From: Eledone cirrhosa
Taxonomy: Eukaryota
Direction: 5' to 3'
Assembly (NCBI GenBank): GCA_964016885.1
Contig: OZ024740.1
Location: 404,798,001-404,862,000 of the forward strand
DNA: 64,000 bases
Shown: positions 1-57,554 of the stretch, in pieces
How the letters are laid out: every line of letters begins with the position of its first letter
Numbering within the stretch: the first letter of the stretch is position 1
Position numbers and translations under genes: made by a program
Notes under the pieces: model-generated
What the model saw: only the letters and a program-made list of their open reading frames with translations
The model's database searches: none
What the model was told of the DNA's origin: nothing

Positions 1-215
1 AAAGCTGAAAGAAACTTTGGAAATTGTAGCTCTGAGTTTTGTTTTACTGTGCAACTAATTGCAGTTTTCAAGTTTTCATTCTTACATTCACTGTCTTTTA
101 ATTCATCTATTAGTTGTTTAATATAAGTAAATGTAATTATTCATGAAACATATTACAGGTAAATTTTTTATTGGTTTTGGAGTAAAATTTCTAAAAGCCT
201 TCTTTTATCTTGTAG

Positions 216-5285: not shown

Positions 5286-5747
5286 GAGTCAGATTGCAGT
5301 GCAGATGGCAACAACAAAGTTAGCCATTCTACTAACACTATGAACAACAAATCACACTCTCAGACATCTGTAGCTCGGAGTAGAGACCAGAATGTGGCTC
5401 CTGGAATTGGAACAAAAGTTAGAGACAATAATTCAATAAACACTTCATCTACACGTTCTGTGCCTGTAGTTGCACCTGTTATTGCACCTCGACGAGTGAT
5501 AACAAATCCAAAACACACTTCAAACTGTACCACCAGCTATAGTCTGGCACAACCTCTTGATGTAAATGGACAGAACAATATCAAATATTCAAATATCAAC
5601 CACTACTCATATCATATTGGTCAGACACCTCATAACATACATCAAGTGAACAACAAAGTGATTCATTCAAATGGCAACACCAAACGACGGAAAAACGCAG
5701 TCAAAAGAGATGGTATTCTCACTCCTGGCAATGGAAGCAACAGGTGA
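5286..5747 (+). CDS. TENT4: TENT4 terminal coding exon
   Basis: ttttag|GAG in frame with ORF 5340..5747; ends with the basic motif KRRKNAVKRD (like the C-terminal basic patch of PAPD5), then TGA. Confidence 0.85.
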   Translation, partial: ESDCSADGNNKVSHSTNTMNNKSHSQTSVARSRDQNVAPGIGTKVRDNNSINTSSTRSVPVVAPVIAPRRVITNPKHTSNCTTSYSLAQPLDVNGQNNIKYSNINHYSYHIGQTPHNIHQVNNKVIHSNGNTKRRKNAVKRDGILTPGNGSNR

Positions 5748-18215: not shown

Positions 18216-19889
18216 GTGTTACATCCTATTGATTTTTTGAGATCTATAAAGGCAATTTATTTCGAAATATTCCTCATTTCGATTTTCCCACCAGCTCAGT
18301 CTCTAGGTGAACTAAAGGTCGTGACACACAAAATGTTCCTCGTTCCTGCTATAAAGTGGTTGGTGTTAGGAAAGGCATCCAACCATAGAAAACCAAGCCA
18401 AAAACAACGTACGAGCAAGACCTAGTCACCTGACCTGTCTAGCCTCACAACAATACAAGCATGTCTTACAGATGGGGCTTTTAATTTCCTCACTTTCCTT
18501 ATAATTCGTCCCCTTCTTTCATTTATATTATATTAATAATTGGAAACCATTCATGTATTTCTTTCACTCTAAAATAGTAAAAAAAAAAAGAAAAACGTCT
18601 GTAAAAGAAACTTTTCAATAGTGATCCACATAAAAAAAGGTCAGTTGACAAGGGAACTAACTAACGTCTAACAATTGTCAAAAGATAATTTTGTAGAGTT
18701 ATGTACCTTTGAGTAAACATTTGAAATCGTTTATCTTGAATGGTATAAGTGCAGAGGATATGGAATAATTAAATGGTTAAGATACTGGACTTCTAATATT
18801 TATCACACTAGAGGTTTTATGTTGTTTTAACAGACAAGAAAACAAGCTCCAGTATCCTATGTATACCCGAAACACTGAGGATTTAACTCTTCGATTACTA
18901 AAACTACACCAGCATGTCTTTTACTGTCAACCTCCTTTGTCGCCCTCATTTTTCCACTCGGACGTAAACAAAGGATGATGATGATGATAAATACAATAAA
19001 AGACATATATTGATTAAATTTACTTTATTTACTTAATTCGCTTCACAATCTAAACTAAAACATACCATTACGTGTTTAGCAAATGGGGTAGAGTGGGGGG
19101 AGGCAAACACCAGGCGGGGGATGGCAAAATATCAAAAAAACAAAAACAAACAAAAACCTGTACTGGGACACAGAGTTTTAAGAAAATTACACCACTAACA
19201 CACATTTTCAACTACACTAGCAACTTTGTAATATAAAACCAAGTAAAACAATTTCAATCCTGAAGCTGGAACAAAACTCGAAGTTGCATTTAGAAAAACT
19301 TATTGCTCAACTGATGTTCAATTTTTAATCTGGATTTCTTCATAAACAAGTGTAACCACAACTTGAAACTGTTTGGTTTCTGAAAGCAGCAAAGATGTAA
19401 CATCTCACAAACTGAATTCAAAACAGCGACTTGGCAGTGTCATTAGGGTCTTATATTTAAAATGCCTTGCATTTGTTCCTGCTTGCTACACTCTGAGTTC
19501 AAATGTTGCCCCAGGATTCCATCGTTTAAAAAGAGAAGTATGGACAGGTTACACTCGAGCACTACTGATAACATGTAACTCAGTACAACTTGTCACATGG
19601 TCGGCTCATTGGCAACTAAACCAACAAGCCTTTGGTGGAGTACACATGAACACACACACATACACACTCACACACACACACACACATGTACACACACACA
19701 CTCACACATGTACACAGATACAAACACACACACAGACACAAACAGACTCACACACATACACACATAATAAGATGGTTGATAATCTTATAATGAACAATTG
19801 ATATTTGACTCTTCCCTTTATATTGTGTCTTTTGTTTAGTTAATGTTTGTTGTTTTTATATATTTCAGAGCAGTTATATATATATATGT

Positions 19890-21383
19890 GTATGTGCATG
19901 TACATGTGGCTTACCTTTAGCTAGGTACTTTTCCTTCAGCTGCCTCATCAGGAAGAGAGCATCTGCAGTGCTTTTGCCAGGTAGAAATCTGAACTGTATC
20001 TCATCTAGATTTACCCGGTCCCTAATCAGCTGTCTTATAACTCTTTCTGTTAGTTTCATGACCTGGTCCATCAACTTGATGCCTCTGGTATTTTTACCTG
20101 GCCCAAATCCAAACTGCATTTTATCAAGTTTAATTCGGTTGCTAATCAGCTGTGCAATAACTCTTTCTGTGACCTTCATAGCCTGGTCTACCAACTTAAT
20201 ACCCCTATAGTTTTCTCTGTCTAGAGCATCTCCTTTGCCCTTGTAGTTGACGATAATGTTGCTATGCCTGTCATTAGGTATGACTCCATTTTGTATTACT
20301 TGGTTTACTATATGGGTGACTATGATGTGTCCCACCATCCCACACCCTTTCAGCATCTCAGCAACTACCCCCAAAGGTCCAGCTGCCTTGCCTGTCTTCA
20401 TATCTTGGCTTACCTTACTTACTATACTACTACGAACTTGCACAGCCGGTCCTTCTATTGGGTCAACTAGGGGAAAACTATCTTCATCCCATTCATCCTC
20501 CTTATTTAGCAGTCTTTCATAGTGGCACTTCCATGCTACCTTCTTTTCAGCATCAGTGAGGGCAAGTTCTCTGTTATCATCACAGACATACTTCTCCTCA
20601 ACAATATCACAATTTCCCTTGACACATTGTCTTGCAGTCCTGAACACCTCATGTCTTTGGTCCTCGCATTGCAGAACATGCTTAAAATTTTTATCTTCTG
20701 TTTCTGCTTCCCTCCTTGCAAAGTACACTTGTCGCTTAGCTTCTCTCCTAGCCACCTGGTAGTGTTCTGTACCTCCTCCCTCCCACCATTCTTTCTATGC
20801 CCACCTTTTGGCCTTAATTGTCTCCTCCTCCTACTGTTCCACCGCCAAGTACTTCTCCTCCCTAGAGGCTTGCTTCAGCCACAGATTTGTTGCCTTCAGT
20901 AGGTTATCTTTCAGGAATTCCCACTACTCCTCTATATTGTATGTCTCTATTTGCACTACCTTACTATCAAAAGCATCAAGTAACATGCCTCTAAATTTGT
21001 TACTGACTGTGGGGTTCTTCAATATCCACATTCTTCCCTTCAAGATTCTCCTCTGTTGTTGAGTTCGTCTAGTCCTGACTACAAGGTCACTAACTATTTA
21101 GTTATGTTGGGAGATGCATTCTTCACCAGGAAGGGACTTTGTGCTTACAACAGCCACCCTGTCACATCGTCTGGAAAGGATAAAATCAATCTGGCTGGTG
21201 TGTTCCCTTGATCTTTAGGGGATCAAGTGATTGTTTTATTTTTTGAAGTTTGTGTTACAGATAGTTAGGTCATTGGTATCGCAGAACTCCAGGATCCTGA
21301 AACCATCCTTGTTTCTATAACCAAACCCATAACCTCCATAGATCCTGTTGTAGCCATCGCAGTGTTGTCCAACATGCCTATTA
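19890..21383 (-). mobile_element. RTE-clade LINE internal fragment (APE end to RT start), bounded by (TA)n at both ends
   Basis: ORF 19874..20755 (MKTGKAAGP, YKGKGDALDRENYRGIKL, QFGF); upstream APE-type motifs HVGQHCDGY...YGFG and SQIDFIL. Confidence 0.9.
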
Positions 21384-22510: not shown

Positions 22511-22683
22511 CAGGCCGGGTGATGTGTTGTTTCCTTGCAAGCAGGGAAAAAAAGTGGATGTAAAATGAAACGATGATGATATATACACATATATATATAT
22601 ATAACAGAAGTCTGATGAGCTTTTGAATCCAGAGTCAGGTCCGATCAATACAGAACGAACCTTGAGCTGAAGGGCTGGCGTAG

Positions 22684-24458
22684 CAGCATCATTGTTAACT
22701 GCTACAAGGGTAAAGGAGATGCTCTAGATCGGGGAAACTATAGAGGCATTAAGTTAGTTGACCAGGTCACAGAAAGAGTTATAGCGCAACTAATCAGAGA
22801 TCGAATTGATCTAGATAAAATGCAGTTTGGGTTTGTGTCAGGTAAAAGTATAACAGATGCACTTTTCCTTGTACGACAACTACAGGAGAAGTACCTAGCT
22901 AAAAGTAAACCCCTCTACTTAGCTTTTGTTGACTTGGTGAAAGCCTTTGACAGAGTCACACGCTACATTATCTGGTGGGCTTTTAGAAAGTAGATGAATG
23001 GCTTGTGAGAGCTATACAAGCCATGTATAAAGATACAGTCAGTAAGGTTAGAATTAACAATGAATACACTGAAGAATTTAGTGTAAAAGTCAGTGTTCAT
23101 CAAGGCTCTGTCCTTAGCCTCCTCCTATTTATTATTGCCCTTCAGGCTATAACAGAGGAGTTTAAGACTGACTGCCCATGGGAACTTCTATACGCAAATG
23201 ATCTAACGCTCATAGCTGAATCTATGGCTGAACTAGAGAAGAAATTCCAAACATGGAAGCATGGCCTAGAATCAAAAGGCCTTAAAGTTAACTTGTCTAA
23301 GACTAAAGTTCTAGTATGTAGAAAGGAAAATAGGACACAGGTGCCCTCTGGGAAATGGCCATGCTCAGTATGTAGGAAAGGAGTAGGTAGAAATTCCATT
23401 CTATGTCCCAAATGCAAACTATGGGTACATAAAAGATGTAGTGGGATCACAGGCAAGCTATCTAAGAACGTAGATTTTATATGTGGCCGATGCTCAGGTG
23501 CAATCAGTAGCAAGTGCCCACAAGATACTAGCTCAGATGGTTCCATAGAAATAGTGGACACTTCCTGTTATGTGGGTGACAAAATCAGCAGTGGTGGTGG
23601 GTGTTCTGAAAGTACAGTAGCCAGAGTTAGAACGGGATGGAAAAAGTTCAGAGAGCTTATACTGCTGTTGGCCACAAAGATTTTCTCTCTAAAAATGAAA
23701 GGCAGATTGTATGATGCTTGTATATGGACAGCAATGTTACATGGCAGTGAGACATGGGCATTATGTGCAGAGGACCTGCGCAGACTGGAAAGGAACGAAG
23801 CATGCATGCTCCGTTGGATGTGTAATAGTAATATACACGAATGGCAAAACATAAATGAACTAAGTGAGAAATTAGGAATAAGAGGGATCAGATGCTGTTT
23901 AATCGAAAGACGATTACATTGGTACGGTCACATGATGCGCATGAAAGACGACAGCTGTATAAAAAAGTACAGGGCGATCAAAATTGAAGGAAGTTACAGA
24001 GTAGGTAGACCCAGAAAAACCAGATCAGATCAGACAAGACCAGATCAGATCAAACCAGATCAGATCAGACAAGACCAGATCAGATCAAACCAGATCAGAT
24101 CAGACAAGACCAGATCAGATCAAACCGGATCAGATCAGATCAAACCGGATCAAATCAGACAAGACCAGATCAGATCAAACCGGATCAGCTTGGACCAGAA
24201 CAAAATGTTCTTGACTGACTCCATTGAGATGGGTTCAGTGCGGCCATCTGGCCTATCCTTTCTCATAATGGTGCCATCCAGTTCCACACTGTAAATGTGG
24301 TTGGTGTAAGGAAGGGCATGCAGCTGTAGAATCTCCGGTCAAATTCACAGTCCTCGGACTGTATGGCATGGTCAATTCTGGCCTGAATTGTCTCCCAACA
24401 TGGATAACCTGTCTAGAAAAATGGACGCTAAATGGTAATGATGATGATGATGATGATA
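22684..24458 (+). mobile_element. RTE LINE 3' half with (GAT)n tail, disabled
   Basis: ORF 23005..24294 (HQGSVLS, YANDL = mutated YADD); 3'UTR motif ggaagggcat...gctgtagaa; gatgatgat tail. Confidence 0.92.
24020..24200. repeat. (CAGAT/CAGAC/CAAAC)n pentanucleotide array at the end of the RTE ORF
   Basis: Direct inspection; produces the DQIR-type repeats in the ORF. Confidence 0.9.
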
Positions 24459-25811: not shown

Positions 25812-26626
25812 ATCATCATCATCATCATCACCGTTTTACGTCCGTTCTTCCATGCTAGCATGGGTTAGACGGGTTGTCCTGTTGTGGGCAGTGTCTGGTC
25901 GGCTGACCATGCCTTGCTCATACAGGAACTGATCTGGCTTGATTTCTACAGCTGGATGCCCTTCCTAACACCAACCTCATTTACAGTGAGTGCTAGGTGC
26001 TTTTTCGTGGCGCCTACACGTCCACTTTACAGTGTGGGCTGGGTGCTTTTTTGCCGTGGCACCTCCACGACCACCTTGCGGTGGGGGGGTGTGGGGGCAT
26101 ATTGTTTATATGCTTCAGCATGTACCCATGGGAGGTCGGGTACCCTGTATTACTGCGTGACGCCAGAAGTCACGGTCGTGTGTCATTGACTTTGAGAGGT
26201 GTAGTTGGGTAAGGTCGGCTTTTATCACCTCATCCCAAGTCATCTTGGGTCTCCCCACTTCGCGGTTTCCATCAACTTCTAGTGCTCTGCACCTTTTTAT
26301 GCAGCTGTCATCCTTCATACGCATCACATGTCCATACCAGCGTAACCGCCTCTCCTGCACGCAGCATTTGATTCCTCTTATGCTCAGTCTCTCTCTCAAT
26401 TCCTTTATGCTTTGTCGTTCACGTATATTACTGTTACACATCCATCGGAGCATGCAGGCTTCGTTTCTCTCTAATCTACGTAAGTCTTCCACCTTCAGCG
26501 CCCAGGTCTCACTACCATGCAACATCGCTGTTCGGATACACGCATCATACAGTCTGCCTTTCATTCTGAGGGAGAAGCCTTTTGCAGCTAGCAGTGGTAG
26601 TAGTTCCCTAAACTTCTTCCATCCCG
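25812..26626 (-). mobile_element. 5'-truncated RTE LINE
   Basis: TGWKKFREL...LHGSETW...RLRWYGHV...RPKMTW; (GAT)n tail; (TA)n on both flanks. Confidence 0.92.
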
Positions 26627-26646
26627 TATATATATATATATATATT

Positions 26647-28414
26647 GTTATACTTGGGGAGGGTAATATTTGTGTAATATTGCCAGAATTAATAACAGAA
26701 CACACTCACTGTTTGGTTGGTTTTCGCTTTTGTGTCTTTTATATCGGTTAATTTAATTTATTCGGTCCTCATTGTTGCCATTGACTGACCAATGGTCAAA
26801 AATACAGATACAATATAGACACAAACACATATATATAGTCTATCAAAGTTCTTTTGTTGCACATCTGCAACATCGTCAGTGTTGCTATTATGTTTCCTCC
26901 CATTGCATTGTATGCTTACGCCATCTTTATTTAGTCTGTTTATTTATTTATTTATTTGTTTTTTTTTTGTCTTCTCTGCGCATGCGTTTGCGTATAGTGT
27001 TTTGTTTGATGTGTGTTCTTGTTTGGGTGACTGTGTATTGGTTAATGCTTCTATCTTAGTTTACTGGTGTGTGTTTATATGTGTTTGCTGTTATTGTGCT
27101 TGTGTATGTATTTATCTATTTATTTATTTATCTATCTATTTATTTATACTTCTCTTAGGTCAGTGTTGTTTGTTTGGGTGTTGTTGTTATTCCATTCATT
27201 TTTTCTGTTTAGCCTTGGCCTTCTAAGTTCTATTTCGCTAGCCTCTCTGATTTGCCTATCTGCTGGGTCGTTTCTATGTTTAGATTATATTCTAACTTCT
27301 ATGTTGTCTATGTTACCGTTGTGTTGTCTGGCATGTTCGTATAGTACTGAACCGTTTTTTTCGTCCTTTTAGTTCCCCCCAGTGTTGGTCTATCCTTTCA
27401 CCTATGCTACGAGCTGTCTCGCCTATGTATGTATGTTGTCATGTTTCTGCAAGTACCCTCTGTACATCTTATGCTATAGACTACGTTTCTAGTTTTACAG
27501 TTTATCCGGGGATTTACTCTACATATGATACATTTCCTATTAGTACAGTGGGTTTTCTTAAAAGGGTAGGTTTTGCTGATCAGGGATTTTATGGTGGTTC
27601 CTGGCTTTTCTTCCACCTTAATCTTTAAGTGGGTCTTTCTCAGGGCCTTTCTACACTGGTTAGCTAATGTCCCTCCAGGGGTAGCGTCCACAAACATGAC
27701 ACTCTGGTATCTCTGGTTGTCGTACCATGAGGTGGCTTTTACTATCTTACGTCTAGTCTTATCTAAGCTATTCCATGATTTGTTCCTGTATAATGGGCAA
27801 ATTCCTTTCATGTCCAGTTCTATAATGGGCAAATTCCTTTCATGTCCAGTTCTATGAGGGTCTTATACTTCTCCGTGGCTCCTTCGTATACTCTGATTCT
27901 GTCTCTTTGGTTGTAGCCAGAGAACTGCATGCATCTTTCCATTTCTGTTGGGTCGCACATGCGGGACACGTTCTTCATCACTTGTACCAAGTCTGCGATC
28001 AGAATATTAAACTTAGCACTACTGGACATTGCTGAGTTTTTGAGTATCATGTATTTGGAGACCATGGGTTTAGCGTAGTGTGAGTGGAGAATTTGGGCTC
28101 TCTCGTCTATAGCATTAATCCAGAGTTCTGTGTCTAATACAGGTAGTCTATTGTTAGGGTGTTTGGAAGGGTAGTCGATAGTTACAGTTATACTCTGGAG
28201 TATGGAATTAGCTATCTGCTGGATGCTTTCCATTGTGCTACGTTCTACATCAAACTTGTTAGTACTCTCTTGTGGGGATGTCCTTATTATTATATTGATG
28301 TTGTCTACGTAACGAGAGTACATGATGAGGTCTATGAAGCTCTCATCAAGGAGATCTTTGAGTCTCCTAACAATATTTGTTTCCACACACGATTTCATAT
28401 CAAAAACCTCGCAA

Positions 28415-28417
<3 letters not shown>
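26647..28417 (-). mobile_element. Penelope-like element, Naiad-like, 5'-truncated and disabled
   Basis: RT C-terminus RYVDNI...TIDYPSKH...LPVLD...HYAKPM...SA...K; Cys cluster HCTNRKCIIC...C...VVYSIRC...C; GIY-YIG YIGETARSIGER and RQIREA...LNRKNEW in shifted frames; (TA)n on both sides; 32-bp duplication frameshift at 27789-27852. Confidence 0.8.
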
Positions 28418-28486
<69 letters not shown>

Positions 28487-30800
28487 CATCATCATCATCA
28501 TCATCAACGTTTAACGTCCGTGTTCCACGCTTGCATGGGTTTGGACGGGGGTTTTCCCACTTGAGGCAAGAGTGATTGTCTTGCTCGCATAGGACTGTCT
28601 GGCGGGTTTTCTACAGTTGGATGCCCTTCCTAACACCAACCACATTTACAGTGTGGGTCTGGGAGGTTTTTACCGTGTTGCCTACACGGCCACATTACAG
28701 CGTGGACTGTGTGTTTTTTTGTCGTGACACCTACACGATCTCATTTGTTTCGGCCTGGATGGCGGGGCACCAACATAACTTTACATAGAACGGGGTGGTG
28801 TGGATGGGGTGGGGGTGGTGGTGGTGGGACGGGGTGTATTTTGTTAGAGATGCCTACTGGCTGGAGTAGGTTTTACTATATATTTAGGTAAGGCGGGTCT
28901 TCTCTGTTACTGAGTACCGCCAAAGGTCTCGGTCCAGTGACATTGTCTTGGAGAGGTGTAAGTGTGTGAGGTCGGAGTTTATCAGCTCGTCCCAGGTTTT
29001 TCTAGGTCTGCCTATTCCGTGGCTACCGTCTATCTTTATTGCCCTGCACTTTGTTATACAGCTATCGACTTTCATGCGCATCACGTGTCCATACCAACGT
29101 AGCCTTCTCTCGAGTAAACAACATCTGATCCCTCTTATCTCTAATTTTTTCCTTAGTTCGTTTATGCTTTGCCGTTCACGTATATTACTGTTACACATCC
29201 AGCGGAGCATGCAAGCTTCGTTCCTCTCTAGTCTGCGTATATCCTCTGCACACAATGCCCAGGTCTCACTGCCATGCAACATTGCTGTTCGTATGCAGGC
29301 ATCGTACAACCTGCCTTTCATTTTTAGGGAGAACCCTTTAGCAGCTAATAGTGGTATAAGCTCTCTGAACTTTTTCCAACCAGTTCTGACTCTAGCTACA
29401 GTACTTTCAGAGCACCCTCCCCCACTGCTGATTTTATCGCCCAGGTAACGGAAGCTGTCCACTATTTCTATAGAACCCTCTGCGCAATTGAAAGAGCTAG
29501 TATTTTGTGGGCACTTGCTGCTACTTATCGCACCAGAACACCGCCCACATGTAAAATCTATGTTCTTAGTTAGCTTACCTGTGATCCCACTACATCTTTT
29601 ATGCGCCCATACTTTGCATTTAGGACATAAAATGGAGTTTCTACCTATGCCTTTCCTACACACCGAGCACGACCATTTCCCAGAAGGGACCGCCGCCTTG
29701 TTTTCTTTCCTACAAACTAGAACTTTAGTCTTAGCCAGGTTAATTTTAAGTCCTTTTGACTCTAGGCCGTGCTTCCATGTTTGGAATTTCTTCTCTAGCT
29801 CGGCCATTGATTCCGCTATGAGTGTCAGGTCGTCTGCGTATAGGAGTTCCCATGGGCAGCTGGTCTTGAACTCCTCTGTTATAGCCTGAAGGGCAATAAT
29901 AAATAGTAGGGGGCTGAGAACAGAGCCCTGATGGACGCCAACTTTTACGCTAAACTCTTCACTATATTCGTTGTTAATTCTAACCTTGCTGACTGTTTCT
30001 TTATACATGGCTTGTATAGCCCTCACAAGCCATTCGTCAACGCCTAGTTTTCTAAGAGCCCACCAGATAATGGAGCGGGGGACTCTGTCGAAGGCTTTCT
30101 CCAAGTCGACAAAAGCTAAGTAGAGGGGTTTACCTTTAGCTAGGTACTTCTCCTGTAGTTGTCGTACTATGAAAAGAGCGTCTGTGGTACTTTTGCCTGA
30201 CACAAACCCGAACTGCATTTCATCTAGGTCAATTCTCTCTCTGATTAGTTGCGCTATTACTTTTTCCGTGACCTTCATGACCTGGTCGATTAATTTAATG
30301 CCTCTATAGTTACTCCTATCTAGGGCGTCTCCTTTACCCTTATAACAGTTAACGATGATGCTGCTATGCCAGTCCTTCGGAACAACCCCATTCTGTATGA
30401 CTTGGTTAACTATGCGGGTGACCATGGTGTGTCCCACCGTGCCAGATGCCTTCAGCATCTCAGCAACTATTTCCGAAGGCCCAGCCGCCTTACCCGTCTT
30501 CATATCCTTGATTGCCTTACTTATTATACTCCCCTCGACTAACACTGCTGGTCCCTCTATTGGGTCGATATGGGGGAAACTGTCTTTCTCCCATTTATTC
30601 TCCTCATTTAGTAGCCTTTCATAGTGACACTTCCAAGCTACCTTCTTATCAGCGTCGGTGATGGCAAGTGTGCCATCATCGTTTAGTACACACTTCTCCC
30701 CGACAATATCACTGTTTTCCTTGACGCATTGCCTAGCAATCCTGAACACCTCACGTTTTTGGTCCTCGCGTTGTAGAACATGCTTGAACTTTCTTTCCTC
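28487..30800 (-). mobile_element. 5'-truncated RTE LINE with uninterrupted RT ORF
   Basis: ORF 28884..30827: FVDLEKAFD, GVHQGSVLSP, YADD, YLG, no stops over ~640 codons; 3'UTR and (GAT)n tail abut (TA)n. Confidence 0.95.
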
Positions 30801-30859
30801 TATACATGTGTGTGTGTGTGTGTACACTTATCGTGATGATGATGAAGATATATATATAG

Positions 30860-35740: not shown

Positions 35741-37430
35741 AGCCACACCGGTCACATGTGTTGTCTGAGGGCCACATGTGTCACATATGTGTTGTTTGAG
35801 GGCCACATTGGTCACATGTGTGTTGTCTGAGGGCCACACCGGTCACATGTGTTGTCTGAGGGCCACATCGGTCACATATGTGTTGTCTGAGGGCCACATC
35901 AGTCACATATGTGTTATCTGAGGGCCACATTGGTCACATATGTGTTGTCTGAGGGCCACACCGGTCACATGTGTTGTCTGAGGGCCACATGTGTCACATA
36001 TGTGTTGTCTGAGGGCCACACCGGTCACATATATGTTGTCTGAGGGCCACACCGGTCACATGTGTTGTCTGAGGGCCACATCGGTCACATATGTGTTGTC
36101 TGAGGGCCACATCAGTCACATGTGTTGTCTGAGGGCCACATGTGTCACATATGTGTTGTCTGAGGGCCACACCGGTCACATATATGTTGTCTGAGGGCCA
36201 CACCGGTCACATGTGTTGTCTGAGGGCCACATCGGTCACATATGTGTTGTCTGAGGGCCACATCAGTCACATATGTGTTGTCTGAAGGCCACACTGGTCA
36301 CATATGTGTTATCTGAGGGCCACACTGGTCACATATGTGTTGTCTGAGGGCCACACTGGTCACATATGTGTTGTCTGAAGGCCACACTGGTCACATATGT
36401 GTTGTCTGAGGGCCACACTGGTCACATATGTGTTGTCTGAGGGCCACACCAGTCGCATATGTGTTGTCTGAGGGCCAGACTGGTCCCATATGTGTTGTCT
36501 GAGGGCCACATGTGTGACATATGTGTTGTGTGAGGGCCACATGTGTGACATATGTGTTGTGTGAGGGCCACATCAGTCACATATGTATTGTCTGAGGGCC
36601 ACATGTGTGACATATGTGTTGTGTGAGGGCCACATCAGTCACATATGTATTGTCTGAGGGCCAGACTGGTCACATATGTGTTGTCTGAGGGCCACATGTG
36701 TGACATATGTGTTGTGTGAGGGCCACATCAGTCACATATGTATTGTCTGAGGGCCATATTGGTCCCATATGTGTTGTCTGAGGGCCACATGTGTGACATA
36801 TGTGTTGTGTGAGGGCCACATCAGTCACATATGTATTGTCTGAGGGCCATATTGGTCCCATATGTGTTGTCTGAGGGCCACATGTGTGACATATGTGTTG
36901 TGTGAGGGCCACATCAGTCACATATGTATTGTCTGAGGGCCAGACTGGTCCCATATGTGTTGTCTGAGGGCCACATGTGTGACATATGTGTTGTGTGAGG
37001 GCCACATCAGTCACATATGTATTGTCTGAGGGCCATATTGGTCCCATATGTGTTGTCTGAGGGCCACATGTGTGACATATGTGTTGTGTGAGGGCCACAT
37101 CAGTCACATATGTATTGTCTGAGGGCCATATTGGTCCCATATGTGTTGTCTGAGGGCCACATGTGTTGTGTGAGGGCCACATCAGTCACATATGTATTGT
37201 CTGAGGGCCATATTGGTCCCATATGTGTTGTCTGAGGGCCACATGTGTGACATATGTGTTGTGTGAGGGCCACATCAGTCACATATGTATTGTCTGAGGG
37301 CTACACTGGTCACATATGTGTTGTGTGAGGGCCACATCAGTCACATATGTGTTGTCTGAGGGCTACACTGGTCATATATGTGTTGTCTGAGGGCCACATC
37401 AGTCACATATGTGTTGTCTGAGGGCTACAC
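35741..37430. repeat. 29/31-bp minisatellite (~55 units) with a 93-bp higher-order repeat in its distal half
   Basis: Unit gtcacatatgtgttgtctgagggccacacyg; three-unit periodicity at ~36670-37280. Confidence 0.97.
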
Positions 37431-46093: not shown

Positions 46094-46419
46094 ATCTAAA
46101 CCAAATGAATCTCAAATTAGTTTTTGAGAAAACATTGCTTTACAGAACATTTTATCAATTCTTTAAATCTATGTGATCATATTTCTAAAATCTCTTTTCT
46201 GAAAACAAAGCTAACAGATGTTAATCATCTTTAAATATTATTTTTTCTCTTTGCTCACCCAACTTGATGAGATTTTAACCATATTTCCATTTTAAAATAC
46301 AAATGAAAATATTTTAGATAGGATAGTGTTAGTTCATTGATCTGATGTCGTGTTGACATCATATATATAACTGTCGAATGGCCAGAACAGAGCCGTCGGG
46401 GTCCTGAATCTTTTCATAT

Positions 46420-46477
<58 letters not shown>

Positions 46478-46518
46478 GTATATAAATAAGATCAAAAGAT
46501 GGTTAAAAGAGTTCCATG

Positions 46519-46589
46519 TATTTTATTATGTGCATTTCAAAAACAAATATCATCATGCAATAACATTTGTGTTTTCATCAGATAAAATA
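46519..46589 (-). ncRNA. Type I hammerhead ribozyme (mirror copy)
   Basis: Reverse-complement copy of 46724-46794, with stem III ATGCACAT. Confidence 0.8.
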
Positions 46590-46723
46590 GGAGGACATGA
46601 TATGAAGGTTAAAAACACTTGTGGATAGTGCAGTTTTAAATCAACATATGAAAACTACTTTTTATATGTTGATTTAAAACTGCACTATCCACAAGTGTTT
46701 TTAACCTTCATATCATGTCCTCC

Positions 46724-46794
46724 TATTTTATCTGATGAAAACACAAATGTTATTGCATGATGATATTTGTTTTTGAAATGCGCATAATAAAATA
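46724..46794 (+). ncRNA. Type I hammerhead ribozyme (canonical core)
   Basis: Stem I TATTTTAT/ATAAAATA, CTGATGA (46732-38), long AU-rich stem II, GAAA (46775-78), palindromic stem III ATGCGCAT, AUA cleavage triplet (after 46786). Confidence 0.85.
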
Positions 46795-47037
46795 CATGGA
46801 ACTCTTTTAACCATCTTTTGATCTTATATATTATGTATACTCCAGTCCTACAAACTGTAGAGTGCTTCTTATCCGATATCTGCATTGCTTTATTGTACTA
46901 CAATAAAACTCACCTCCTACATATATATATATATATATATGAAAATAGAGAAATTAATGTGAGCAATATATATATATATATATATATATAAATGAAAATA
47001 GAGAAATTAATGTGAGCAATATATATATTTATATATA

Positions 47038-48143
47038 TCATCATCATCGTTTAACGTCCATATTCCACGCTTGCATGGGTTTGGACGGGAGTTTTCCCAC
47101 TTGAGGCAAGAGTGGTTGTCTTGCTCGCATAGGACTGTCTGGCGGGTTTTCTACGGCTGGATGTCCTTCCTAACACCAACCATATTTACAGTGTGGAACT
47201 GAAAGCTTTTTACCGTGTTACCTACACGGCCACATTACAATGTGGACTGTGTGTTTTTTTGTCGTGACACCTACACGACCTCATTTGTTTCGACCTGGAT
47301 GTTGTGGTACCAACATAACTTTACATTGAAAGGGGCGGTGTGGATGGGGTGGGGGTAGTGGGACGGGGGTGTATTTTGTTAGAGATGCCTACTGACTGTA
47401 GTAGGTTTTACTTTGTATTTAGGTAAGGCGGGTCTTCTCTATTACTGAGTACCGCCAAAGATCTCGGTCCAGTGACATTGTCTTGGAGAGGTGTAAGTGT
47501 GTGAGGTCGGAATTTATCAAGTCGTCCCAGGTTTTTCTGGGTCTGCCTACTCCGTGGCTACCATCTATTTTTATTGCCCTGCACTTTTTTATACAGCGGT
47601 CGTCTTTCAAGTGCATCACGTGACCATACCAACGTAGCCTTCTCTCGAGTAAACAACATCTGATCCCTCTTATTTCTAATTTTTCCCTTAGTTCGTTAAT
47701 GCTTTGCCGTTCACGTATATTACTATTACACATCCAGTGGAGCATGCAAGCTTCGTTCCTCTCTAGTCTGCATATATCCTCTGTGCACAATGCCCAGGTC
47801 TCACTGCCATGCAACATTGCTGTTCGTATGCAGGCATCATACAGCCTGCCTTTCATTTTTAGGGAGAACCCTTTAGCGGCTAATAGTGGTATAAGCTCTC
47901 TGAACTTTTTCCATCCAGTTCTGACTCTAGCTACTGTACTTTCAGAGCACCCTCCCCCACTGCTGATTTTGTCACCCAGATGATGGAAGCTGTCCACTAT
48001 TTCTATAGAACCCTCTGTGCAATTGAAAGAGCTAGTATTTTGTGGGCACTTGCTGCTACTTATTGCACCAGAGCACCGGCCACATGTAAAATCTATGTTC
48101 TTAGTTAGCTTACCTGTGATCCCACTACATCTTTTATGCACCC
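47038..48143 (-). mobile_element. 5'-truncated RTE LINE, close relative of the 28487 copy
   Basis: ORF 47419..48141 and 3'UTR nearly collinear with 28487-29600; (TA)n on both sides. Confidence 0.93.
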
Positions 48144-48537
48144 ATATATATATATATAAATGAAAATAGAGAAATTAATGTGAGCAATATATATATATAT
48201 ATGAAAATAGAGAAATTAATGTGAGCAATATATATATATATATATATATAACTGTATTTTAACTTTAATTTTATACCTAATTGTGTATGGTTGACGATAT
48301 ATTTAATCGATTTCCACGTGCTATTGAAATGCTGGGTAAATATTCTATGGCTGTTGATCGTGAATAGGTGGCTATCGTTTATTTATCTATTATTTCTTCA
48401 TAGGTGTCTTTTAATCTTATAGCCTGGTTTAATTGTTTCTTTGTGTGGTTAATTATGCTAATTGGGAGAGGAAATTGAGTATATATCTTATCAAATGATT
48501 CTAAGGACATAATTTATAGTTACAGTTATATATATAT

Positions 48538-48870
48538 GGCTTAGTGGTTAGAGTATTGGGCTTGCAATCGAAAGGTTCTGAGTTCAATTCTCAGACCGGG
48601 TGATGTGTTGTTTCCTTGAGCAAGACACTTTATTTCACATTGCTCCAGTTTACTCAGCTGTAGAAATGAGATGATAGGACTGGGGTCCCTATCATTCCAC
48701 TGCAAAGTAGTCGTGGAGGTGCCACGGAAAAAAAAAGCACTCAGCACTCACTGTAAATGAGGTTGGTGTTAGGAAGGGCATCCAGCTGTAGAAATCAAGC
48801 CAGAATCAGTTCCCATCCCACTTTTGCAAGCAGGGAAAAGCGGATGTAAAATGATGATGATGATGATGAT
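48538..48870 (+). mobile_element. tRNA-derived CORE-type SINE with RTE-derived 3' tail
   Basis: GGCTTAGTGGTTAGAG / GAGTTCAATTC boxes, CCTTGAGCAAGACACTT core, gttaggaagggcatccagctgtagaaa, (GAT)n tail. Confidence 0.85.
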
Positions 48871-55435: not shown

Positions 55436-56232
55436 TCAGGTGTTATTGCTAATACTGCTGCTGCTATCTCCTTTGTTGTCAAATACGTCAGCAGCAGCCG
55501 CTTGGTGAAGAGGAAAGAGTGGCATTTGCTTGACTTTTACTATATGGTGATGAAGAAGAGGAAAAGGAAAGCGCGACTCCACATTGACTGTTGCTAGTTT
55601 CTTTGTTGTCAAGTGTATCAAATATATCAGCAGTAGCCGCTTCACGACTGCTACTTGATGGAGAAGAGAGAGGAGTGGCATTCGCTTGACTTTTACTATG
55701 GAACGATGAAGAAGAAGACAATAAAGAAAGCGAGACTCTACGCTGATAGCTGGACGAAGAAAAAGAAGGTTGAGAAGGATATCTTGCTGAATGGGTAAAT
55801 TTTGAGTGAATACATGGCATAGAAATAGATTTTTTGAATGACGCCATTTTTCTTTTTTTTTTTTGGCGGGACACATTTGCTAAATGCAAAGTTCAAATAT
55901 GGGATTTAGCCCTGAAGGGCTAAATCCGATTAATTTCGACCACTTCAAAAGAAGTGGGGTGTGTTTAAACACAAAATAATATGGTTTTTTACATTAAGTT
56001 CGCAATAAAAACTGTTCAAAAATCACAAACTTAGGGGAACAAAATTTCCTGAAACGTGTATACTTCCACAATAATAATTATTATTATACAATAATAACCT
56101 TACAGTATACTCTAATATCCAATAACTAAACAAATAATTTAATATTTCTTTTTGTGGTTGTATCATGAAGATTCTCCACACTTAACAGTGTAGATTCACT
56201 ATCAGTAGATGATGAAGCTTGTACATATATTA

Positions 56233-57282
56233 CACCAGATAGAAAAATGCGTACAGCAAAAAAAAGTAATATTGTTGGAATATAAACCTTTAAAAATACA
56301 GGACAAGAAACTAAGATAAAACTTTAAAAGAATAGGACAAGAAACTAAGATAAAACTTTAAAGAATTGGACAAGAAATAAAAAATTTTACAATAATATTA
56401 GTGGCAAAATTTTTATTGGTAAAAAATCGAGTTCCACATTCATAGGCTCTGGATTCCACATTCAGAGGTCGTCGTCAGACCGGGGGGATCATTTGATCCT
56501 GGTTTGAACACCAATTGGGCCATAACCATACCCCTATTTCATCATTCGGCGACACGCCTCATGTGTCATACATAATGTGAATGGACCCATGGGCCCATGA
56601 GCACAGATCTTGAGCAGCAGCGGACGGTCTTGTCGTCCCGCTCATCCTTGATCTTGACCAACCCGTCCATCTTCTCCTTGAGTTCAAGTCTGGCAGTCCA
56701 GATGAATGCATGCCACAGCTTTCTGGTACAGGAAGGGGGAGCAGGAGGACTGGAGGGATGACGGGACAGAGGGAGGGAGGACCGGTGGTTGAGGGAGGTG
56801 CCGTAGTCGGTGGTCAGAGTCGACATCTTGTCCCGGTCGTCTTCTCCATCTTCGTCTGGTGTTGCGGGACCAGAAGTGCATTCTTGGAGGAGACCTGCAG
56901 CTGCATCGGCCAATTCTTCTTGCAATGGTCATTCTGACGGAGCAGAACTGCTCAGCCAACCAACCCCAACCAGCACCAACCGCTCAGGGGAAACGCACAA
57001 TGAGAGCATGACAATTATTATGCACTAATCAAGAAGATACTGGGGCATAGCACAGGAAACGAATAAAAAAATTTTGCCACTAATATTATTGTAAAATTTT
57101 TTATTTCTTGTCCAATTCTTTAAAGTTTTATCTTAGTTTCTTGTCCTATTCTTTTAAAGTTTTATCTTAGTTTCTTGTCCTATTCTTTTAAAGTTTTATT
57201 TTAGTTTTTTGTCCTGTATTTTTAAAGGTTTATATTCCAACAATATTACTTTTTTTTGCTGTACGCATTTTTCTATCTGGTC
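56233..57282. mobile_element. Foldback/CACTA(EnSpm)-like non-autonomous DNA transposon with long TIRs and subterminal 34-bp repeats
   Basis: 56234-56417 is the reverse complement of 57062-57281 (right arm has one extra 34-bp unit); termini CACCAGATAG/CTATCTGGTC with TA on both sides. Confidence 0.7.
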
Positions 57283-57554
57283 TACTATTTTTTAAGGCAA
57301 TGCAAGCAACAACTATCTAATAATTAAATGATCATAGTGAATTACTGACAAGTGATTGACATTTTAAAGTTCTTTTGAGTATAATTGCAATCTAGTTGAG
57401 GCAACTGGCTTAATGACAAAGCTAGTAAATCATGAATGCATTTGAGATGATTAGTGCATAATAGTGAATTAGTGAAACTTGTGCATTTCAATGGTGTTAC
57501 AACAATAGATGTAAGTTATATAGTAGTAATACTTTATCATTTCAACTTTTTAGA

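Follow-up and report, generated by a model that had tools for sequence, protein, structure and literature searches.

The 342-bp palindrome that lies in a 64-kb stretch of Eledone cirrhosa DNA (the whole analysed stretch, hereafter the window) is, judging from its sequence, a 5'-truncated head-to-head pLTR copy of a young autonomous Penelope-like element (PLE) of the Hydra clade. We consider it probable that truncated head-to-head insertions of this kind are made when both strands of a (TA)n target are cut and both resulting ends prime on the same sense RNA. The window copy itself is a dead by-product, and its hammerheads are passengers that are unable to pair together on one transcript.

The inverted repeat 46482-46654 / 46659-46831 (98% complementary) is by far the most perfect short-spaced inversion of the 64-kb window. 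Base-by-base pairing spans 46486-46827 (342 bp), with arms of 164 bp and a centre of 14 nt, and confirmed the palindrome that had been described from the letters alone, including its one stem III mismatch: the sole arm mismatch is 46531/46782, and a second one (46650/46663) falls in the centre. The tail with AATAAA (46840-46920) and the (TA)n on both sides are present as had been claimed, and the palindrome is indeed devoid of an ORF (none of at least 120 aa overlaps it). In intact elements the ORF begins 54 nt beyond the tail and the 5' leader carries AATAAA too, so that this AATAAA is only a putative poly(A) signal. Family position n is the window coordinate minus 46659 in the right arm (5 is 46664, 127 is 46786, 180 is 46839 and 261 is 46920). 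The features are as follows, with their basis in brackets:

46415..46485, no strand: left half of the (TA)n target (sequence; (TA)n ends nearly all family copies).
46486..46654, minus strand: tail-less ('short') arm, a pLTR copy in inverted orientation that covers family positions from about 0 to 168-172 (inverted repeat, pairing).
46519..46589, minus strand: type I hammerhead motif of the left arm; a CpG change at 46531 breaks the stem III palindrome; predicted cut after 46527.
46651..46654, no strand: 4-nt A/T microhomology common to both arms, the head-to-head junction (same junction at 5 loci).
46651..46839, plus strand: pLTR body of the tailed arm, spanning family positions -8 to 180 (comparison with family copies).
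46661..46668, plus strand: initiator-like word around A46664, predicted capped start of the family RNA; one base changed in this arm (arm 5' ends, junction bases).
46724..46794, plus strand: type I hammerhead motif of the right arm, with stem I 46724-31/46787-94, CUGAUGA 46732-38, stem II 46739-74, GAA 46775-77, palindromic stem III 46778-85 and a predicted cut after 46786 (motif scan, family variation).
46840..46920, plus strand: PLE 'tail' of about 80 nt between two predicted RT initiation sites (family 3' ends).
46921..46939, no strand: right half of the (TA)n target (sequence).

The arms of the window copy extend to positions -8 and 0 and have four A/T bases in common. This exact junction has 6 matches genome-wide, corresponding to 5 loci, and the window palindrome therefore does not spread as a unit. 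At the family level the palindrome is not an assembly artefact, since a count by junction pattern found 1,706 similar mini-palindromes (hereafter minis) genome-wide. The contigs assembled from three short-read runs of one sample included further head-to-head joints as well as one loose end in (TA)n, at 46839, and none of them bridged the window locus.

Searching the 3.0-Gb genome with the right arm and tail gave 1,049 candidate matches, the best 40 of which are 99-100% identical, and the 50-nt hammerhead core occurs 1,875 times without mismatch. At locus L031 a pLTR with tail is followed by the ORF, then by a 3' UTR of about 0.9 kb and by another pLTR, which ends in (TA)n. Among the 66 ORF matches scored in a protein search, 62 are free of internal stops, and the 13 copies that were fetched all encode an ORF of 809 aa; 152 protein homologues were found. 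The pLTRs of these 13 intact copies are 91-96% identical to that of the window and represent a sister subfamily. The sequence-only reading had proposed a PLE terminal repeat, a recent insertion, and a genome search for copies and a linked PLE ORF. Both copies and ORFs were found; the repeat is 99-100% identical to the pLTR of ORF-linked copies; and, outside common polymorphic columns, copies differ from the majority by about 1.1%, which is why we regard the burst as recent. The window locus is thus an ordinary dead stub, a product of a known class.

Aligned with 19 homologues, the 809-aa ORF shows the RT motifs FDIASYYSSI, YRDDG and NFLDV together with a Y..YFG..R..H block at its C terminus. 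Neither Pfam nor PDB returned an RT or GIY-YIG match for it, and the clade assignment rests on motifs. In the ORF, DKG is replaced by DKT (HSDKTNN), the linker is of the CxCX5C type (CNCRIKNKC / CNCPAKNKC), and the EN reads CNLC..NEK..INRR..CLH, with CxxC and CxH flanking its conserved E and N and no cysteine pair within its core, that is, no CCHH. The family combines a (TA)n target with a hammerhead in the pLTR, and shows inverted 5'-truncated copies, tails at one end and partial tandems. As far as the available part of the Hydra clade description goes (Craig et al. 2021, PMC8557442), DKT, CxCX5C, CxxC and CxH around the EN end, the absence of CCHH, the (TA)n target, the pLTR hammerhead, and the inverted 5'-truncated copies with an often one-ended tail are common to both. 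The published clade has RWK, as do most of the 19 homologues, whereas RW is followed here by T or I (RWT/RWI); its unit is generally <3 kb, against about 3.5 kb and an 809-aa ORF with an asparagine-rich insert here; and its tail is 30-40 nt long, against about 80 nt (PMC8557442). The hammerhead, with its long stem II and even 8-nt stem III palindrome, is unlike that of Hydra-1_Obim as given in the same source, and the element therefore belongs to another family: the family is new, and its inverted truncated architecture is already published. The asparagine-rich insert, seen in L195:3830-6256 and other intact copies, measures ~60-70 aa and lies between the RT and the EN linker; most homologues lack it, and a similar insert has been reported for rotifer PLEs.

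Insertion ends follow a pairing rule. The first sample comprised 100 consecutive exact matches to the 50-nt core on contig 1, that is 77 insertions, the exact-match requirement biasing it toward one young subfamily. The 3' ends of these 100 arms are bimodal, 58 being short (about 172-180) and 39 tailed (260-265), while 3 read into the ORF. All 49 insertions with two pLTR outer ends join one tailed to one short arm; three more join a read-through arm to a short one, two are of other kinds, and 23 of the 77 show no inverted pLTR end in the sequence retrieved around them, some of these stretches being too short. The same pairing was seen in 39 of the 42 minis examined among the first 50 (3 were otherwise; two loci overlap the first sample) and in 15/16 insertions of a third sample. 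The exceptions include one tail+tail (L033) and one short+short (L215) insertion, and nearly all family copies end in (TA)n. For PLEs, inverted 5'-truncated copies with an often one-ended tail have been described (PMC8557442; PMC3846280, both as available to us in part). The arms are often unequal: the short arm reaches >10 nt further 5' in 25 of the 49 insertions, the tailed arm in 10, and 14 are equal within 10 nt, a bias that asymmetric deletion at palindrome centres could mimic, although such deletion is not expected to favour one arm. Thirteen tailed arms, some consisting of tail only, stop at positions 98-241, against a single short arm, and these stalled tailed arms fit a downstream RT meeting an upstream one. 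At two loci (L097 and L191), a second copy lies tail-to-tail inside the (TA)n of the first, i.e. a repeated insertion into the same target.

The 5' ends of the arms cluster at a putative RNA start site. In the 100 arms of the first sample, 35 end at positions 1-9, 25 of these at 4 or 5, and none of the 84 arms of the 42 minis is templated beyond position 4. These 84 arms comprise 34 that join via the 4-nt end palindrome, 10 with an unambiguous untemplated G, 2 with a C, 12 that are ambiguous, 11 with another base, and 15 that stop earlier or are diverged; both arms have an untemplated G at the junction in 2/42 minis. The hot spot lies in the word 46661..46668, which resembles the Inr consensus. 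An untemplated G has been taken as the copy of a cap for L1 and SVA (PMC4859970), and an internal promoter with an initiator is described for Penelope (PMC2377424), in the portions of both papers at hand. From the arm ends and junction bases we infer that a capped sense RNA starts at A46664; microhomology alone can make junctions, and the hot spot at the start site happens to be a palindrome of 4 nt. In L060, L065 and L011, the first eight bases past the predicted start were copied again several times at the junction, which suggests that the RT slips and restarts at the template end. L193, one of the 13 intact copies, was not accepted as a clean full-length element that begins at the start site: its junction contains an inverted piece and changes, and the support that it gives is weak.

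The two arms of one insertion appear to be copied from one template. Among the 37 insertions with at least 60 shared columns, the arms differ by 2.1% within insertions and by 3.2% between them (0/2000 permutations), a similarity that could also stem from gene conversion or assembly polishing. At site 146, where two variants occur in roughly 50:50 proportions, the arms agree in 34/37 insertions and disagree in 3/37. When arms are classed as start (ending at -12..9) or long (< -30, running far into the 3' UTR), limits that were fixed after the data had been seen and in a region where BLAST ends are fuzzy, the 49 insertions comprise 13 start/start, 10 long/long and no mixed pair (0/23; Fisher p 9e-7), the other 26 having an internally truncated arm. 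These unmixed classes point to both primers sitting on the same pLTR of one molecule, and argue against a mere pause site. The arms of L098 belong to two different subfamilies, and a minority of insertions use two templates or recombined.

Both strands of the palindrome read TATTTTAT-CTGATGA-stem II-GAAA-TGC(G/A)CAT-A-ATAAAATA. A loose hammerhead scan of the 64 kb gave 5 rows for 4 sites, and stem I is fully paired only in the two palindrome motifs, which both have the type I core CUGANGA / GAA / UH with three stems. The outward-pointing type I hammerheads, one per arm, that the sequence-only reading had announced were therefore recovered with their stems on both strands; the motif layout agrees with its cleavage after 46786 (+), and predicts another after 46527 (-). 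Its word 'canonical' is slightly generous in view of the 10.1-11.1 pair, which is A-U, and of the folding of the isolated motifs given below. The covariance-model check that it had advised did not recover the motifs, Rfam returning no hammerhead match at E<=1 and only generic hairpin models; the miRNA and CRE matches of the palindrome are below the gathering score and reflect the hairpin. The isolated 71-nt motifs fold no better than their shuffles (z -0.74 and -0.80), and the hammerhead fold is at -6.4 kcal/mol against an MFE of -10.6 kcal/mol. Recurrent variants in paired columns keep the pair in 6/7 cases, the exception being the CpG change of the window left arm; of the other recurrent variants one affects core position 7, which is free, and two affect loop 2. 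The rare variants break pairs 36 times and keep them 22 times. The case for a putative ribozyme is made by the complete core, the three stems and the family variation. The stem III mismatch is a CpG C>T change on the + strand carried by 8/202 arms, and not a design feature; it takes the predicted stem III self-dimer from -10.5 to -3.7 kcal/mol, and would thus weaken the dimer helix in this model.

The predicted cut is the exact centre of sixteen palindromes whose arms overlap there by only 2 nt and whose flanks are unrelated (15 of the 16 are tail+short); two other 2-nt AT sites used as controls gave 0 and 0, and a spaced control 1. Of 36 spaced junctions near the cut, sorted by eye, 23 fall within the stem III palindrome of 8 nt, an arm starts at the cut in 6, and 7 are of other kinds. 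These counts hint, with few controls, that templates beginning at the cut are about 1% as numerous as those beginning at the start, as would be expected of rare cleavage in vivo.

From these observations, with start site, cap and cleavage all read from DNA, we propose the following pathway. The protein of the element would cut both strands of the (TA)n target. The tailed arm would arise by priming of one end at about family position 263, and the tail-less arm by priming of the other end at about 172-180; these two sites presumably correspond to the internal start sites that were reported for another PLE in vitro. Both cDNAs would be extended toward the 5' end of the RNA. The downstream one would stall at the upstream one or displace it, and the two would then be joined head-to-head via 2-8 nt of microhomology. 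Priming on the 5' pLTR would yield the minis of 340-430 bp that end at the capped start A46664: an internal RT start near the RNA 5' end, as in the available part of PMC11167929, would produce them directly. Priming on the 3' pLTR would yield the long arms, and a rare class would begin at the hammerhead cut. The window copy is atypical, as its arms overrun the usual start by 5-13 nt; its template was therefore longer than usual, likely the 3' pLTR or a read-through RNA, and its 4-nt-loop hairpin with a longer tailed arm fits a fold-back equally well. We lean, by a little over even odds, to the wider proposal that PLEs integrate by obligate twin priming, in which a dimeric protein would use one fixed RNA start site for each end of the double-strand break and copy one capped sense RNA twice, so that the palindromes would record, as fossils, where the 5' ends of RNAs lay, and would provide evidence that a PLE hammerhead cuts about 1% of the templates in vivo.

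Other origins of the palindromes have to be weighed against these two priming events on one sense RNA. A tail-primed cDNA might reach the template end, fold back, copy itself and land on (TA)n through the TA-like stretch at 172-180, with later central deletions varying the arms. This fold-back is unlikely in our judgement, though it accounts for the shared variants and the end rule, places the short end in a TA-like stretch, and has in the window junction a ready 4-bp hairpin next to a longer tailed arm. It needs a tailed arm that reaches at least as far 5' as the short one, and the reverse prevails (25/49 versus 10); nor does it suit the tail-only arms (positions 197-263, 204-263 and 241-263) joined to short arms, the two junctions of 42 with an untemplated G on both arms, or the single-arm copies that too end at the short site. 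Tail-only arms are equally unexplained by self-priming on an antisense RNA, by which the palindromes at the inverted junctions of rotifer PLEs were interpreted (PMC3846280, as available in part); since the sharp boundary with its extra sense-strand G and the sense-strand cut junctions indicate a sense template, we find such self-priming very improbable.

We give a slim chance to a dimeric protein that carries two separate RNAs of the same source locus, one RNA each, and makes two cDNAs that are then joined. Shared variants and full arm overlap would then follow without strand displacement, and the 3/37 pairs that disagree at site 146, as well as the two subfamilies in the arms of L098, would find an easy explanation. 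This model does not predict, however, that mixed start/long pairs are absent (0/23) or that tailed arms stall near the short site. Hardly any credence is left for a separate non-autonomous element, retrozyme or MITE-like, spreading as a unit, despite the 1,706 similar minis and one junction common to 16 of the 42 examined. The junctions are heterogeneous (20 types among the 42), that of the window recurs at only 5 loci, and the shared variant columns already suggest that minis are interleaved with ORF-bearing subfamilies. The non-autonomous PLE/retrozyme initially suggested for the window gives way here to a sequence continuous with the pLTR of the autonomous, ORF-bearing copies, occurring as a head-to-head pair only, with no head-to-tail monomers and no tandem monomer array.

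The favoured pathway, two fixed priming sites on one sense RNA, resembles several known systems in part. In L1 twin priming, both target ends reportedly prime on one RNA to generate an inversion, and the two pieces are said to hardly overlap, with a second site that varies. In contrast, both sites are fixed here and the arms usually overlap fully, which generates palindromes. With the Poseidon PAc element of Anolis (Frangieh et al. 2024, PMC11167929, in its available part) our family has in common a tail delimited by two internal sites of RT initiation, and AT-rich target DNA of which both strands are cut and extended, as seen there in vitro with uncut RNA as the main template. Poseidon PAc belongs to another clade, its start sites lie within the ORF and not upstream of it as here, and neither start site showed a strand preference in vitro; the same part of PMC11167929 describes no head-to-head products and no rule of one site per end, and it found no reads at the ribozyme cut. 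The type I hammerheads of PLEs (Cervera & de la Pena 2014, PMC4209133) share with ours a short palindromic stem III and are predicted to act as dimers, but they usually have G10.1-C11.1 where A-U occurs here. That paper, in the part at hand, had already noted pairs of opposite-strand motifs 100-700 bp apart in Schistosoma, as truncated PLEs, and gives no evidence of cleavage in vivo, for which the present evidence is genomic and indirect. The non-LTR retrozymes (bioRxiv 10.64898/2026.07.22.740005, likewise seen in part) also combine a type I hammerhead, a PLE origin and copies without an ORF; however, they are tandem head-to-tail monomers, whereas the present palindrome is a head-to-head stub of an autonomous element. 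Our literature search found no twin-priming or cap-G account of PLE palindromes, which is not a proof of novelty as the 2004-2006 Penelope mechanism papers were outside its coverage.

A transcript across the palindrome is predicted to form a hairpin of about -280 kcal/mol that would bury both ribozymes, and the suggestion that it could serve as an ADAR or Dicer substrate is physically plausible on this modelling. The 217 arms sampled show 79 T>C against 26 A>G changes; fossil ADAR editing was rejected as their cause in this sample, the T>C excess sitting on recurrent columns of one subfamily. Elsewhere in the window, a PAP_assoc frame (1154-1741, +; E 1e-19) is likely an exon of a TENT4/Cid1-type nucleotidyltransferase gene whose last exon may be 5286-5747, about 40 kb before the palindrome. 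A broken fragment of another PLE (27407-28416, -), with YSRYVDN and a Cys-rich linker, has a similar piece in L045 and is presumably Neptune- or Naiad-like. Next to the palindrome, a LINE piece of 1.1 kb (47037-48140) has on either side two copies of a 27-nt unit with (TA)n (46940-47030 and 48155-48235), an arrangement that resembles a long target-site duplication. Several LINE copies that are related to one another and carry RT and a PHD finger (by domain search for one of them) lie at 19874-20794, 22619-24294, 26115-26705, 28884-30827, which has an open frame of 647 aa, and 47419-48174. An Rfam tRNA match above the gathering score (48537-48594) was not found by ARAGORN. In the regions 36670-37185 and 56227-57288 there are a minisatellite and two inverted repeats of 136 bp, separated by 650-790 bp.

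The family bears on how PLEs form inverted pLTRs with a one-ended tail, a question for which PMC8557442, in its available part, calls for mechanistic work; an antisense template was proposed in the available part of PMC3846280, and the sense-template reading favoured here goes against it. It also bears on whether PLE hammerheads cut in vivo, the accessible part of PMC11167929 reporting that reads at the cut were not found. As the family offers many natural intact ORFs and exact predicted coordinates for its start, its two RT initiation sites and its cut, both of these PLE questions become directly testable. Finally, a single animal genome here contains at least 1,700 hairpins that are long and perfect, and these may be a source of dsRNA.
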